A DNA stretch of 4,076 bases. Source: a virus (taxonomy: Duplodnaviria > Heunggongvirae > Uroviricota > Caudoviricetes). Positions 75 through 4,074 of this stretch are shown here, one piece after another. The notes beneath the pieces were generated by a model. The model saw only the letters and a program-made list of their open reading frames with translations. It searched no databases and was not told the origin of the DNA. Location of the stretch: IMG/VR virus record IMGVR_UViG_2778261064_000018. One strand, written 5' to 3'. The translations under genes and the position numbers were made by a program. The number at the start of each line of letters is the position of its first letter. Positions within the stretch are counted from its first letter, which is position 1.

Positions 75-785
75 TTACACCCTCCCCAGTGCCAGCGGTC
101 TGTTGCTCTGACCATTAACCCCCTGATGCAGCCTGGCGTTTTTCCCGGCGATAAAACCGGCTGTAGCGGCAAACTCTGCACCCCGGCACGCTTTAGCTGT
201 GCGCATATCCCCGTCGCGCAGCCCCTTAGTGCTGTGCAGGTTCTTTCTGTAAAGCTCAAGGCGGCTTTTTTCTTCCGGGGAGACGTCATACACCGCAATG
301 ACATCACGGGCACCAAAGACCCAGCCTTCGCAGAACTGGTCGCCACGGGCCACCCGCGTGGACGGACCACAACGTTTGCAGTGTTTATCCTGATATTTCT
401 TACGCTCTGCCATCATCTGACGGGAAAGCACATCAAACGCGTAAGCCGCGATTTCCGGGCGGCTGTCAGAGCCATAAAAACGCACGTGACGTTTGAGTGA
501 ACCAGAAGCCCGGTACTCGCCGGAGATGTAACACTCGACACCGAAGGCTTTACAGACCAGGTCACACAGGATGTGCATATAACGCGGCGGCGTACTGGCA
601 TCACTCGGCGCACCCGCGCTGGCAGCTTCCTGAATGTCGAACAATTCAGCGTCGTTTTCGCTGATGCCATGCTGGCGCATATAAGCCTGGGCTTTTGCAA
701 TAGCGTTAGCGGCTTCTTCCGGGCTTGATGTCCCTCTGGCAAGGCGTAACAGTTTTTTGATTTTGGCAATGTATTTATCTTTCAT
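75..785 (-). CDS. Conserved prophage early-region protein, DUF2786-like N-terminus (236 aa)
   Basis: Long minus-strand ORF, ATG at 785..783 and TAA at 77..75. The N-terminus MKDKYIAKIKKLLRLARGTSSPEEAANAIAKAQAYM resembles, from memory, the K-I-x-K-L-L-x-L-A / Ala-rich helix signature of DUF2786 prophage proteins. The central part carries several Cys, including a CxxC (HCKRCG). Only a weak Shine-Dalgarno is visible, and the gene starts 14 nt after the stop of the 799..981 ORF. Family name unverified. Confidence 0.8.
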   Translation of the reverse strand: MKDKYIAKIKKLLRLARGTSSPEEAANAIAKAQAYMRQHGISENDAELFDIQEAASAGAPSDASTPPRYMHILCDLVCKAFGVECYISGEYRASGSLKRHVRFYGSDSRPEIAAYAFDVLSRQMMAERKKYQDKHCKRCGPSTRVARGDQFCEGWVFGARDVIAVYDVSPEEKSRLELYRKNLHSTKGLRDGDMRTAKACRGAEFAATAGFIAGKNARLHQGVNGQSNRPLALGRV

Positions 786-798
786 AGTCGTCTGAATC

Positions 799-981
799 TC
801 AGCATCCTGAATTCTGAATTACGCAACTTCCGGTACGGCCTTCAGGAACGTGGGGAGTTCGTTCTGGCTGCGGCGCTGGATGAACATCTGCTGTCGACTG
901 AGAACTGGTCGCAAGACGATTAAAACAAACGATTGTCAGATTAATTTCGCGGGCGAATTTTTTTTGCTTGGCGATATTCAT
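799..981 (-). CDS. Hypothetical small protein (60 aa), coding status uncertain
   Basis: ATG at 981..979 is preceded by GAGGAAG with a 7-nt spacer, and that RBS sits directly 3' of repeat copy 1, the same arrangement as for the 181-aa gene. The C-terminal half (PAPQPERTPHVPEGRTGSC...) looks low-complexity, so this may instead be a leader or regulatory region. Confidence 0.3.
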   Translation of the reverse strand: MNIAKQKKFAREINLTIVCFNRLATSSQSTADVHPAPQPERTPHVPEGRTGSCVIQNSGC

Positions 982-997
982 AAATAAACTTCCTCAG

Positions 998-1055
998 ATT
1001 CAGGCGTAAGCCAGCCCCGGCGGGTTTACGCCATATACAAATAAAATTAAAAACA
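998..1055. repeat. Intergenic direct repeat copy 1 (~58 bp) with embedded imperfect-palindrome hairpin at 1003..1032
   Basis: attcaggcgtaagccagccccggcgggtttacgcc followed by an AT-rich tail ending aaataaaattaaaaaca; near-identical to 1623..1680. The hairpin arms GGCGTAAGCC / GGGTTTACGCC give about 10 paired positions on the DNA. Lies between the 181-aa ORF stop (1062) and the 60-aa ORF start (981). Confidence 0.85.
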
Positions 1056-1061
1056 GACTTA

Positions 1062-1607
1062 TTAACTACGACGTTCAGCTTTCCGGTAATGACGGTCAAC
1101 AGACTTTACGAACGCCTTCACATCACGGGAAATCGAATCCAGCGGATAATATTCATCCAGTAGTTCCATTCCACTGAATCGAATCTGAAAAAAATCAGGC
1201 TTATCTTTATATGACTCCATCAGGTCAATAAACCGCAGCTGACGCGGGAGGGATTCCTGCACGCCTGAAATAGTGAGCAAATCATCTTCAAGGATGTATG
1301 CGAGGTCTTCCATATCCTTACAGTCAGACAGCATGGATATTCTTGTCAGTATGTTCCGTGTGGCGATATACAGCGCGGCTGTGTCATTCGCCATCATGGC
1401 GAACAAATCCCCCTGAATATAAGCCCCCTTACTGGCCATAGCATTCCCGGCAATCTGCGCATCAAGTACCACATGCATAAAATCGGCAGGTGCTCCCAGA
1501 TGGCCCAGCAATGATGACGCCCATAACGTTACATTGGTTAACTTCTCAGATGAACGGGTAGCAAAACCTTCAGGAGTAACAATAAAATCCCAGACTTTAT
1601 CTTTCAT
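1062..1607 (-). CDS. Hypothetical protein (181 aa), no recognisable family; candidate accessory/moron gene
   Basis: Minus-strand ORF with TAA at 1064..1062. The ORF track begins at a TTG (1613), but an in-frame ATG at 1607..1605 is preceded by AAGGGGA with a 7-nt spacer, so 1607 is preferred. Flanked on both sides by the 58-bp repeat and visibly more AT-rich than its neighbours. No catalytic motif recognised. Confidence 0.75.
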   Translation of the reverse strand: MKDKVWDFIVTPEGFATRSSEKLTNVTLWASSLLGHLGAPADFMHVVLDAQIAGNAMASKGAYIQGDLFAMMANDTAALYIATRNILTRISMLSDCKDMEDLAYILEDDLLTISGVQESLPRQLRFIDLMESYKDKPDFFQIRFSGMELLDEYYPLDSISRDVKAFVKSVDRHYRKAERRS

Positions 1608-1622
1608 ATACAAATCCCCTTA

Positions 1623-1680
1623 ATTCAGGCGTAAGCCAGCCCGGCGGGTTTACGCCTGTTTTAAATAACAATTAAAAACA
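1623..1680. repeat. Intergenic direct repeat copy 2 (~58 bp) with embedded hairpin at 1628..1656
   Basis: attcaggcgtaagccagcccggcgggtttacgcc plus tail ...aaataacaattaaaaaca. Differs from copy 1 by a 1-nt C deletion in the loop, a 1-nt indel in the tail and a divergent 6-nt stretch right after the hairpin. Lies between the 63-aa ORF stop (1688) and the 181-aa ORF start. Confidence 0.85.
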
Positions 1681-1687
1681 AATTAAA

Positions 1688-1879
1688 TTAATGCGGTGCT
1701 TTCAGTGTTTCGACTTTAACGAAATAAGGCTCGACATTAATTTCAACCACACAGCCACATTTAAAATCTCTGGCCGGTGCAACAGTTTTTACCACCCGCC
1801 CACCACGCACTGCCCGGTGTGCAATGTGCATGAAACGAGTACCTGGCGGATATAGCTGATTAAAGCGTTTCGCGTTCAT
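1688..1879 (-). CDS. Hypothetical small protein (63 aa)
   Basis: ATG at 1879..1877 with an upstream AAGGATGGAAG purine-rich stretch. Overlaps the 3' end of the upstream gene by about 20 nt, consistent with translational coupling. Stop at 1690..1688, just before repeat copy 2. No family recognised. Confidence 0.45.
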   Translation of the reverse strand: MNAKRFNQLYPPGTRFMHIAHRAVRGGRVVKTVAPARDFKCGCVVEINVEPYFVKVETLKAPH

Positions 1880-2768: not shown

Positions 2769-2984
2769 TTAATGTGTGTTATGTGCGCGAGGCGCAACGT
2801 TTTCAGAAAAAATATTCACGCCGTTGTAGTCATTTCTCAGTGCTTCCTTGATAACATCATGTAATCCTGTTGCCACCTGAAACTCCCTTTCGGAAGTGCC
2901 GTCCTTCGAATAACTCCCTGTAATCTGGGTTAAAGTCGCGCCTTTTTCATCGGTATAGATAATTACTTCTAACTTAACCCCCAT
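2769..2984 (-). CDS. Small protein (71 aa), paralog 3 of a tandem small-protein family
   Basis: The track start (3005) lacks an RBS, whereas the internal ATG at 2984..2982 is preceded by AAGGAGA with a 5-nt spacer. N-terminus MGVKLEVIIYTDEKG matches the motif of the 83-aa ORF (MSVKLTIVFTDLGNN). TAA at 2771..2769. Confidence 0.6.
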   Translation of the reverse strand: MGVKLEVIIYTDEKGATLTQITGSYSKDGTSEREFQVATGLHDVIKEALRNDYNGVNIFSENVAPRAHNTH

Positions 2985-3165
2985 GTTTTTCTCCTTTGAA
3001 ATCAAACGATTTAAAAATAATTTCGTTCATAAAACAGTGAGTTTTTCTGATAATGTCGGAAACCTGCTCTCCCGTGACATCAGGCGGCAACTGATACGTC
3101 GCGACGACTTTCTCCGGTTTACCTGGCCTGTCCAGGCTGAAAGTTAATTCAAGCTCTAATGACAT
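2974..3165 (-). CDS. Small protein (63 aa), possible paralog 2 of the tandem family
   Basis: ATG at 3165..3163; the upstream sequence TGAGGGCTGAAAA uses the stop of the preceding gene as part of a GAGG Shine-Dalgarno. N-terminus MSLELELTFSLDRPG is a weaker match to the VKLxIxFTD motif. Overlaps the next gene by 11 nt. Confidence 0.45.
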   Translation of the reverse strand: MSLELELTFSLDRPGKPEKVVATYQLPPDVTGEQVSDIIRKTHCFMNEIIFKSFDFKGEKHGG

Positions 3166-3442: not shown

Positions 3443-3682
3443 TTATTGCCATACGACGGTGCAGCCGTCGATACAGGACGTTTTAACCACGCGGCGCAGG
3501 CCGCTGAATGTCTGAACGATTTCCGTTACCGGCCATACAGGACCACCCACGGGCGGGCAGGCATAAACCACAGGTAAACGGTGATGCTGTCCCGTTACGC
3601 GACCACCGGTGGTGTGGATGGCCACACGGGCACGGGAACGGACGGCGTTAATGGTCTGCTTGTCCATCGTCTTGTTCTCCAT
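3443..3682 (-). CDS. Hypothetical small protein (79 aa), translationally coupled to the upstream ATPase gene
   Basis: ATG at 3682..3680 overlaps the TGA (3684..3682) of the upstream gene in an ATGA arrangement. An alternative start is Met6 (MDKQTINAV...). No family recognised. Confidence 0.55.
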   Translation of the reverse strand: MENKTMDKQTINAVRSRARVAIHTTGGRVTGQHHRLPVVYACPPVGGPVWPVTEIVQTFSGLRRVVKTSCIDGCTVVWQ

Positions 3683-4074
3683 CAGTGAATTAACATTTCT
3701 GCGAATTTATCAATGGCCTGCACACTGACCGGTGCATCGCTGATATCACAAATCCGGTACACACCGCGCGCCAGTTTGAACAGGCGGCGGGCATTACCCA
3801 GTGAGCGTGCGTAGAGCGCCTCGCTGATTTCCGGTTCTGCTGCTTCCGGCATCAGCCCGGTAGCTATCTGGTTAAAATCTTCCTGCGACAGCGTATCGCC
3901 CAGGTTAAGCGCCAGCGCCACACGGCTGTATAACTGGGCGAACTCACCGCGACGTCCCTTGAGGTTAATCAGAAGGCGTGGCATACCCGCCAGGACAATC
4001 CCGATACCCGCTTTGTCATGCAGACGGCGCAGAACCTCCAGTGCGCGATAGGGGAGCAGTTCAGCCTCGTCCAC
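3682..4074 (-). CDS. C-terminal part of an AAA+ transposition-type ATPase (Mu B / TniB / ExeA-like); 5' end lies beyond the window
   Basis: The open frame runs off the right edge, so the Met at 4074 is only an internal residue. The segment ...GIGIVLAGMPRLLINLKGRRGEFAQLYSRVALALNLGDTLSQEDF... matches the h-h-G-x-P-x-L...L...QL-SR...L pattern found C-terminal to the Walker B region in Mu B / TniB / ExeA-type ATPases, recalled from memory. Stop TGA at 3684..3682. Confidence 0.6.
   Translation of the reverse strand: MDEAELLPYRALEVLRRLHDKAGIGIVLAGMPRLLINLKGRRGEFAQLYSRVALALNLGDTLSQEDFNQIATGLMPEAAEPEISEALYARSLGNARRLFKLARGVYRICDISDAPVSVQAIDKFAEMLIH

Follow-up and report, generated by a model that had tools for sequence, protein, structure and literature searches.

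A conserved stem-loop between early genes of Mu-like prophages, related to the tR1 terminator of coliphage 186 and apparently linking an orphan-gene slot

The hairpin repeats and their setting

An IMG/VR virus record (IMGVR_UViG_2778261064_000018) contains a 4,076-nt stretch of DNA, hereafter the window, in which two direct repeats of ~58 nt each hold one imperfect palindrome of 29-30 nt that would form a hairpin in minus-strand RNA. Here we describe this hairpin element, its relatives in other phages, and the role it may play between the early genes of Mu-like phages. The window corresponds to the early part of a Mu-like prophage inserted in fliH: the chromosome of Escherichia coli OkiPb01701 and those of related strains match it at 99.9% identity, and in the annotation of the 44-kb prophage all genes of the window are on its minus strand. 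Coordinates below are those of the window, on the minus strand unless stated otherwise.

Along the direction of transcription the genes are a MuB-like AAA ATPase (3682-4074+, by family matches), a Kil-like protein, several small genes, a DUF3164 gene (2095-2739, by family matches), an ANR-family protein, and a 63-aa gene (1688..1879) that belongs to phrog_5591 by PHROG match and by its relatives, and that is always found upstream of the element in this group of Mu-like phages. These are followed by hairpin B, a 181-aa gene (1062..1607; an open reading frame, ORF, matching phrog_7741), hairpin A, a 60-aa ORF (799..981, from the ORF list), and a DUF2786/DUF7168 gene (75..785, by Pfam match), which is the first conserved gene past the variable slot. 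The two hairpins therefore enclose a single gene, the 181-aa orphan.

Repeat copy B (1623..1680) contains hairpin B (1628..1656; sense RNA GGCGUAAACCCGCCGGGCUGGCUUACGCC; -13.1 kcal/mol) and repeat copy A (998..1055) contains hairpin A (1003..1032; sense RNA GGCGUAAACCCGCCGGGGCUGGCUUACGCC; -13.9 kcal/mol); the positions of the palindromic arms GGCGTAAGCC..GGGTTTACGCC agree with those given in an initial annotation of this DNA. The hairpin consists of a 7-bp outer stem, GGCGUAA/UUACGCC, a mismatch or bulge (an A.C mismatch in hairpin B), and an inner stem of 4-5 bp, which is interrupted in hairpin B. A degenerate pattern of both arms occurs twice in the 44-kb prophage locus and in none of 100 shuffles. 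The layout is that of a ~30-nt AU-rich spacer after the upstream stop codon, the 29-30 nt hairpin, UGAAU, and the Shine-Dalgarno (SD) sequence of the next gene, with AU-rich sequence of the UUAAUUAU type adjoining the stem. The hairpin starts ~31 nt past the upstream stop codon, which for copy B is that of the 63-aa gene, and ends ~20 nt before the next AUG. On the sense strand, hairpin B is followed by TGAATT, AAGGGGA (1621-1615) and the ATG of the 181-aa gene (1607-1605), and hairpin A by TGAATCT, GAGGAAG (995-989) and an ATG (981-979). The hairpins thus stand just 5' of an SD and a start codon, as had been noticed at the outset; the spacing, first put at 5-6 nt, is 7 nt for copy A and 6 nt for copy B, and of the two consecutive genes then said to follow the hairpins the 181-aa gene stands, while hairpin A precedes only the 60-aa ORF, whose coding status is uncertain.

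The sequences past the stems (UGAAUCUGA and UGAAUUAAG) lack a U-rich tract at either copy, and a consensus scan of positions 700-2000 found no terminator at the element. The element has the GC-rich hairpin of an intrinsic terminator (-13 to -15 kcal/mol on the sense strand) and lacks the U-rich tract of about 7-9 nt directly 3' of the stem, so it is not an intrinsic terminator, in agreement with the initial annotation. RNase III processing, which that annotation had also raised, is unlikely: an RNase III site calls for some 20 bp of largely uninterrupted double-stranded RNA, or two helical turns, and the stem offers 7 bp plus 4-5 interrupted bp with mismatches. A search of Rfam gave nothing above the gathering threshold; the top match, Lnt RNA, scored 26.5 bits (E 0.24) where 55 bits are required.

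Folding energies were a poor guide to the structure. In 91-nt windows the sense strand folds no better than shuffled sequences (z -0.21 and -0.92), so the hairpins do not stand out, whereas the opposite, plus strand reaches -19.7 and -25.2 kcal/mol (z -3.48 and -5.50) because of G.U pairs. Scanning local energies along the entire early region with a threshold of -11 kcal/mol gave results too noisy for use. Since sense energy does not single the hairpin out, the structure rests on comparative data.

Gene insertion, loss and exchange at the hairpin

We found the element in 59 of 5426 complete E. coli genomes, at 1-4 places in each and always in this type of prophage. A dispersed repeat of the REP kind, which would be expected in hundreds of copies, was rejected on this distribution. 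The 181-aa gene is absent from relatives with one copy of the element (E2348/69, SCAID WND1, F163 and 08-00022; loci L002-L005), and their single element, located in E2348/69 at 2721822-2721888 of NC_011601, is composed of the left flank of copy A, the hairpin, and the right flank of copy B, fused exactly at the hairpin.

We surveyed 29 closely related loci that contain both flanking genes, some of them from the same contigs. Between the 63-aa gene and the DUF2786 gene these loci show six architectures, and every junction falls at a hairpin. With HP for the hairpin, g181 for the 181-aa gene and o60 for the 60-aa ORF, they read HP; HP-o60; HP-g181-HP-o60 (the window); HP-DUF7448-HP2-g181-HP-o60; HP-g181-HP'; and HP-DUF7448-HP2'. 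HP2 has another stem (GGCGCAGG../..CTGCGCC) between the same flanks, a T-rich spacer on the 5' side and TGAAT with an SD on the 3' side. Contig L041, considered as a possible tandem duplication, was rejected as such: it holds a different gene, a 121-aa ORF, behind the same linker, with the SD and the first six codons (MKDKVW) in common with the 181-aa gene. An identical 13-mer, TTTATCTTTCATA (sense TATGAAAGATAAA), lies across the start codons of the DUF2786 gene (774-786) and the 181-aa gene (1596-1608), and both proteins start with MKDK. Some cassette junctions thus seem to lie just inside the coding start. Comparison of the window with locus L042 gave a mosaic of identity, in which both intergenic elements are 100% identical and the flanking genes 88-93%.

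Judged from these alignments, copy B occupies the ancestral position, and the window acquired its second copy as a by-product when the 181-aa cassette was inserted; the cassette would have come in together with its own copy of the element or duplicated the resident one. The same comparisons show the module of hairpin, TGAAT and SD as the constant linker of a variable orphan-gene slot, in which genes are inserted, lost and swapped. The suggestion in the initial annotation that the repeat may be a recombination site is borne out in this sense, that the junctions of gene insertions, deletions and swaps among the relatives all fall at the element.

The arrangement resembles that of the promoter-early stem-loops (PeSLs) of T4-type phages, which are mobile cassettes with a regulatory function (Arbiol et al. 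2010, PMC2839356; PMC4122927). In both systems short conserved stem-loop motifs flank non-essential orphan genes in hyperplastic regions (PMC2839356; PMC4122927), and recombination between copies accounts for insertions, deletions and replacements among close relatives, with the junctions placed accordingly here. A PeSL, however, combines a strong sigma-70 promoter with a terminating stem-loop, whereas the window element has neither promoter consensus nor U-tract, and its family numbers 1-3 copies in a genome, confined to a single slot of a single operon. The absence of a promoter consensus bears on a further explanation. The initial annotation had suggested a weak internal promoter in the AT-rich tail; in a PeSL-like or moron-like arrangement such a promoter would fire a transcript beginning at the hairpin and carrying the accessory gene, possibly in the lysogen. 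An AT-rich tract does precede the stem in all cases, and in many variants sequences like TTAATTAT abut the GGCG. Nevertheless, a sigma-70 consensus scan of both strands over 700-2000 found no match where 2.1 were expected, the sequence of the tract is not conserved, and a promoter whose -10 element adjoins GGCG would begin its transcript within the 5' arm, destroying the hairpin; we consider this explanation highly improbable.

A likeness to integron attC sites also deserved attention, as an imperfect palindrome stands in direct orientation at the 3' end of each promoterless cassette. The junctions here look homologous or illegitimate, in contrast to site-specific ones, and attC was rejected: an integron integrase is absent from the 44-kb prophage annotation, and the sequence lacks the R''/R' core motifs (RYYYAAC/GTTRRRY).

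The protein carried by the cassette is restricted to E. coli, where it forms 21 clusters with every full-length member at 85% identity or above. It has no match in Pfam, in PADLOC, or by tblastn in the phage collection. Given its position in a hypervariable slot of the early region, the gene is a candidate for an accessory or anti-defence function. The 60-aa ORF behind hairpin A is more ambiguous. It is without match in both Pfam and PHROG; it is open in 14 variants, with a weak bias at most, since third codon positions hold only 11 of 23 variable sites; and it is absent from L005 and L343, where the hairpin stands directly 5' of the DUF2786 gene. RefSeq calls it a hypothetical ORF on the minus strand here, and in E2348/69 and isolate F163 calls a 72-aa ORF on the opposite strand over the same stretch (799-981) instead; neither of the two matches any family.

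The element in diverged Mu-like phages and in phage Mu

We built a covariance model from seven variants of the element. It scores the window copies at 80.4 bits (B) and 78.6 bits (A), and it finds the element, in sense orientation, in ~45 diverged loci of Mu-like type, in which the DUF3164 protein shares 55-71% identity with that of the window. Among 57 loci with a homolog of the 63-aa protein (35-58% amino acid identity), 54 have the element no more than 110 nt from the stop codon of that gene, and the other three have different GC-rich hairpins at the same place, also without a U-tract. The gene downstream of the element varies among the 57 loci.

Phage Mu itself has the same layout (NC_000929, about 6368-6397), between gam and Mup11. 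This is the only sizeable gap in its early operon and marks the border to the accessory genes. The site reads TTTTAATTAT-GGCGCGATACGTCAGGAGATTGCTCGCGCC-TGAAAC..GAGGAATAAAACATG and scores 27.7 bits with the covariance model. Mu and the window share the order TTTTAATTAT-GGCG..stem..CGCC-TGAA..SD-ATG; they differ in the outer stem, which is GGCGCGA/TCGCGCC in Mu and has two compensated pairs, in the upstream gene, which is gam, and in copy number, Mu having a single one. We had considered the 63-aa protein as a dedicated binding partner of the hairpin, an idea weakened by Mu, where the hairpin follows gam instead.

The window element therefore has the features by which this family can be recognized, namely a sense GGCG..CGCC hairpin with a paired outer stem, an AT-rich spacer, then (U/A)(G/A)AAU and an SD, and a position at the border between conserved early genes and variable accessory genes. 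An almost unchanged copy was also seen in Pseudomonas phage VW-6B (L124, MF975721), a Mu-like phage isolated on Pseudomonas fluorescens, at positions 2476-2544 of the locus (77.1 bits), where it follows a 54%-identical homolog of the 63-aa gene. The family thus reaches beyond Enterobacterales hosts, at least by record label.

Selection on pairing and the strand on which it acts

Across 20 distinct variants 99.3% of the outer-stem cells are paired. In Mu and in an Erwinia prophage two outer-stem pairs have both partners changed, from U-A to C-G and from A-U to G-C, and the covariation score of the outer stem was reached by none of 500 shuffles. The compensated forms are GGCGTAA/TTACGCC, GACGTAA/TTACGTC and GGCGCGA/TCGCGCC. 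The second is found outside those 20 variants, downstream of a 181-aa gene copy with 85% identity, as a change from G-C to A-U at pair 2; the Morganella-type GGCGTAA..TTACGTC is its G.U intermediate, and GGTGTAA..TTACGCC is another U.G variant. The inner stem was judged by per-sequence folds, column-wise counting having been dropped given that clades pair in different registers, and it is compensated between clades (CC.GC/GC.GG versus GCGUC/GAUGC or GACGC). Compensatory changes in homologous elements, which the initial annotation had proposed to look for, are therefore present, and on this comparative evidence pairing of the outer stem is under selection.

The wobble intermediates pair in sense RNA only, as antisense RNA would hold A.C mismatches in their place. 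This favours the sense strand without settling the question. Sense-strand RNA is the most economical reading, given the fixed orientation, the location within an operon, and the homology to tR1 described below. The alternative, a terminator or structure serving an antisense (window plus) RNA, could draw on the greater stability of the plus-strand hairpin, on the sequence TGTTTTAAAT that follows it at copy B, and on the plus-strand ORF that RefSeq calls, in E2348/69 and isolate F163, immediately upstream of the element. That ORF, however, is without family match and is not intact in the window, the 3' flank on this strand is not U-rich in copy A, Mu or most other variants, and the G.U variants of the outer stem pair on the sense strand only. 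Of all the explanations weighed, we regard this one as the least probable.

Selection on pairing also bears on the possibility that the element is a recombination linker at the DNA level only, without an RNA role, and is kept by promoting the exchange of accessory genes between co-infecting phages or prophages. The position of each indel and swap junction at the element, and the mosaic identity around it, would be expected from such a linker. Homologous recombination, however, has no need of pairing, whereas the compensatory and G.U changes indicate selection for it; a single copy is fixed in position across phages at 35-70% protein identity; and the single copy of Mu has no recombination partner inside the genome. 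An exclusively DNA-level role is accordingly unlikely in our estimate.

Kinship with the tR1 terminator of coliphage 186

The 5' half of the sense element, GGCGTAAACCCGCCGGG(C), is identical over 17-18 nt to the annotated terminator tR1 of coliphage 186 (NC_001317, 24384-24412; CTTGGCGTAAACCCGCCGGGCATTCTTTT). According to the 186 record, the early lytic region has several terminators subject to antitermination, tR1 among them, and in P2 a putative terminator is annotated at the corresponding site, between B and orf80. The motif GGCGTAAACCCGCCGGG occurs in at least 120 IMG/VR contigs, most of them with a P2-like layout, stop-AT-rich-GGCGTAAACCCGCCGGG-CATTCTTTTGCCC-AAATTCAGGAG-ATG. The covariance model built from the Mu-like elements scores 186 tR1 at 28.4 bits and also scores the SopEPhi and PsP3 sequences. 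When variation among the P2-like phages was viewed by anchoring on the 3' part of the motif, for unbiased sampling, the short stem was seen to covary from GGCG/CGCC to GACG/CGTC and the loop to vary freely (TAAACC, TCAACT, TTAACC, TACACC and others).

The window element contains the core hairpin of tR1, GGCG-UAAACC-CGCC followed by GGG, in the same sense orientation and in the same kind of site, which is intercistronic in an early lytic operon with an AT-rich spacer on the 5' side and an A-rich spacer, SD and ATG on the 3' side. The difference lies in what follows the core. In 186 a hairpin of 4-7 bp and the tail CAUUCUUUU make a terminator, whereas the window element has no U-tract and lacks both this tail and the second small hairpin of 186, GGGC..GCCC. 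The Mu-like version has GCTGGCTTACGCC in place of the U-rich tail, and this segment pairs back onto GGCGTAA; in the window the 3' part, GCUGGCUUACGCC, pairs with the 5' arm and loop to give the 30-nt hairpin. The long hairpin is predicted at -15.1 kcal/mol, versus -11.2 kcal/mol for two small hairpins and -6.2 kcal/mol for the short stem alone. The neighbours also differ, being the 63-aa gene and DUF2786 in the window and dhr/fil and DUF2732 (orf79/orf80) in 186. By homology, then, the window element is a relative of the terminator tR1, and one that lacks the defining U-tract.

Three P2-like IMG/VR contigs (L248, L284 and L308) have canonical terminators, made of a hairpin and a T-run and of unrelated sequence, at the tR1-type site, followed by the same TTGCCCAAATTCAGGAG linker. 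To judge from these contigs the terminator part is exchangeable and the downstream ribosome-binding-site linker is kept. In the Mu locus (L342, 2350-2358) the sequence CATTCTTTT, identical to the U-rich tail of 186 tR1, lies 6 nt 5' of the gam-Mup11 hairpin, on the 'wrong' side; it could be there by chance, or it could be a trace of a rearranged terminator.

This kinship raises the possibility of a weak attenuator or pause site, in which a degenerate tR1-type terminator would lower or delay expression of the accessory genes and of the downstream Mor activator. Homology of the 5' half to an annotated terminator, the canonical terminators at the equivalent site in the three P2-like contigs, and the putative terminator annotated in P2 at that position would all be in keeping with this. 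Intrinsic termination by E. coli RNA polymerase needs a U-tract, however, and only 1-3 U are present in the 9 nt past the stem in the window copies and in Mu (UGAAACAGA), in addition to which the terminator scan was negative. We consider an attenuator doubtful.

Other features of the prophage

A second 63-aa ORF, at 2974-3165, matches phrog_38867 over its full length (E 6e-47) and occupies a stretch left unannotated by RefSeq in NZ_AP042598 (locus L001, 22985-23175); it is probably a missed gene. The left end of the prophage adjoins a truncated fliH pseudogene beside fliG/fliF (L001, 28068-28415, NZ_AP042598), and the Mu-like element appears to have inserted into and disrupted this flagellar gene in this bovine strain. 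A megablast search of the window against the phage collection returned no match.

Discussion

We propose that the window element is one of a family of stem-loops found between cistrons of the early (Pe-type) operon in Mu-like transposable phages, located at the border between the conserved transposition and early genes and the variable accessory ('semi-essential') genes, where it would act as non-terminating punctuation of the mRNA and, as DNA, serves as the portable linker of a gene slot. We give this reading as a whole a probability of about one half. The identity and evolution of the element are well supported, far better than the RNA mechanism. The comparisons revealed three features that the initial annotation had missed: the single orphan gene between the two copies, the family member in Mu, and the 186 tR1 hairpin in the 5' half.

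In the mechanism that we envisage, the U-tract of a tR1-type terminator would have been exchanged for a segment that pairs onto the 5' arm, so that transcription reads through, and the element would be read within the sense polycistronic mRNA as a 'punctuation mark'. The hairpin could block 3'-to-5' exonucleases, as REP-type intercistronic hairpins do. It could also, or instead, form an RNase E processing boundary, with cleavage in the adjacent AU-rich tract and the hairpin capping the downstream 5' end. Finally, it might shield the downstream ribosome-binding site from pairing with upstream sequence, so that any gene placed behind it would be expressible. The start of the hairpin ~31 nt past a stop codon keeps it clear of the terminating ribosome and its end ~20 nt before the AUG puts it at the edge of the initiating footprint, a geometry that fits a hairpin persisting during translation. 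Overall, the element is probably a stability or processing boundary on a polycistronic mRNA.

REP/BIME hairpins, for example that of malE-malF, are intercistronic stabilizers of mRNA. They resemble the element in being GC-rich, non-terminating hairpins of fixed orientation between the cistrons of a polycistronic mRNA. The element differs in being restricted to prophages, in not being dispersed in the host, and in having no REP consensus; a stabilizing activity like theirs would be by analogy.

Several observations weigh against this proposal. An RNA function is something we infer from position, pairing and kinship, and the element may serve as a linker simply as a side effect of its conserved sequence, with no selection for that function. 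A 4-bp alternative hairpin, GGCG..CGCC, which in the P2-like phages is the covarying stem of the terminator, is possible in every Mu-like variant, and the long hairpin may not be the sole relevant fold. In the E. coli clade the antisense hairpin is predicted at -18 kcal/mol versus -14 kcal/mol for the sense one, because a conserved A.C mismatch in the sense RNA becomes a G.U pair in the antisense. Moreover, the outer stem is nearly invariant in primary sequence, in the midst of flanks that have changed to saturation. Structure alone would not lead one to expect such invariance, which hints at sequence-specific recognition.

Such recognition is the strongest of the rival explanations, although we still judge it rather unlikely. 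The element would be the site of a sequence-specific protein, acting on RNA or DNA, that reads the nearly constant stem GGCGUAA/UUACGCC together with the apex CG(C/U)C(N)GGG; a host factor shared by Mu-like and P2-like phages, or a phage regulator, might serve in antitermination, translational control or processing. In primary sequence the element is much better conserved than its flanks and than the neighbouring gene, with its 35-58% protein identity, the same 17-nt core recurs in unrelated phage families, and the regional terminators in the 186 annotation are anti-terminated in early lytic development. However, no candidate protein was identified and a match in Rfam is absent, the loop drifts in the P2-like phages, and Mu, the Erwinia prophage, L062 and HP2 swap the entire stem sequence and keep only the hairpin. 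A CsrA-type GGA loop was among the candidates and was rejected; it is not conserved, and the loop in E. coli is CGGG.

A more speculative extension, to which we assign little likelihood, would join several of these threads. Mu-like and P2-like temperate phages might have in common a two-state RNA, with a short tR1-type hairpin in one state and, in the other, a long hairpin that absorbs it; the invariant core would dock a common factor that acts on read-through, on processing or on translation. In that case the orphan genes set off by hairpins would amount to a small, integrase-free 'gene cassette' system, through which transposable phages trade accessory and possibly anti-defence genes with ready-made expression signals.

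Intercistronic stabilizer hairpins, the 186 tR1 terminator, and the PeSL stem-loop cassettes for modular shuffling (PMC2839356) were already known. The searchable literature on the motif, on hairpins of the Mu early region and on antitermination at 186 tR1 yielded only papers on lambda tR1 and PeSLs. We found in it no description of the Mu-like hairpin family, including the hairpin between gam and Mup11, of a kinship with tR1 in which the U-tract is exchanged for a back-pairing arm, or of such a hairpin linking a slot for orphan genes in transposable phages.

In summary, the element provides a sequence landmark for the start of the hypervariable accessory slot in Mu-like prophages, which helps to find orphan and possibly anti-defence genes. 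If our proposal is correct, the terminator hairpin of one phage family would have lost its U-tract and found a new use in another as a read-through stem-loop, and the Mu-like elements would join the PeSLs of T4-type phages as a second case of a small regulatory cassette doubling as a recombination linker for gene shuffling. Since phage Mu and the enteropathogenic E. coli (EPEC) strain E2348/69 both carry the element, its effects on mRNA ends, stability and translation are testable in standard laboratory systems.

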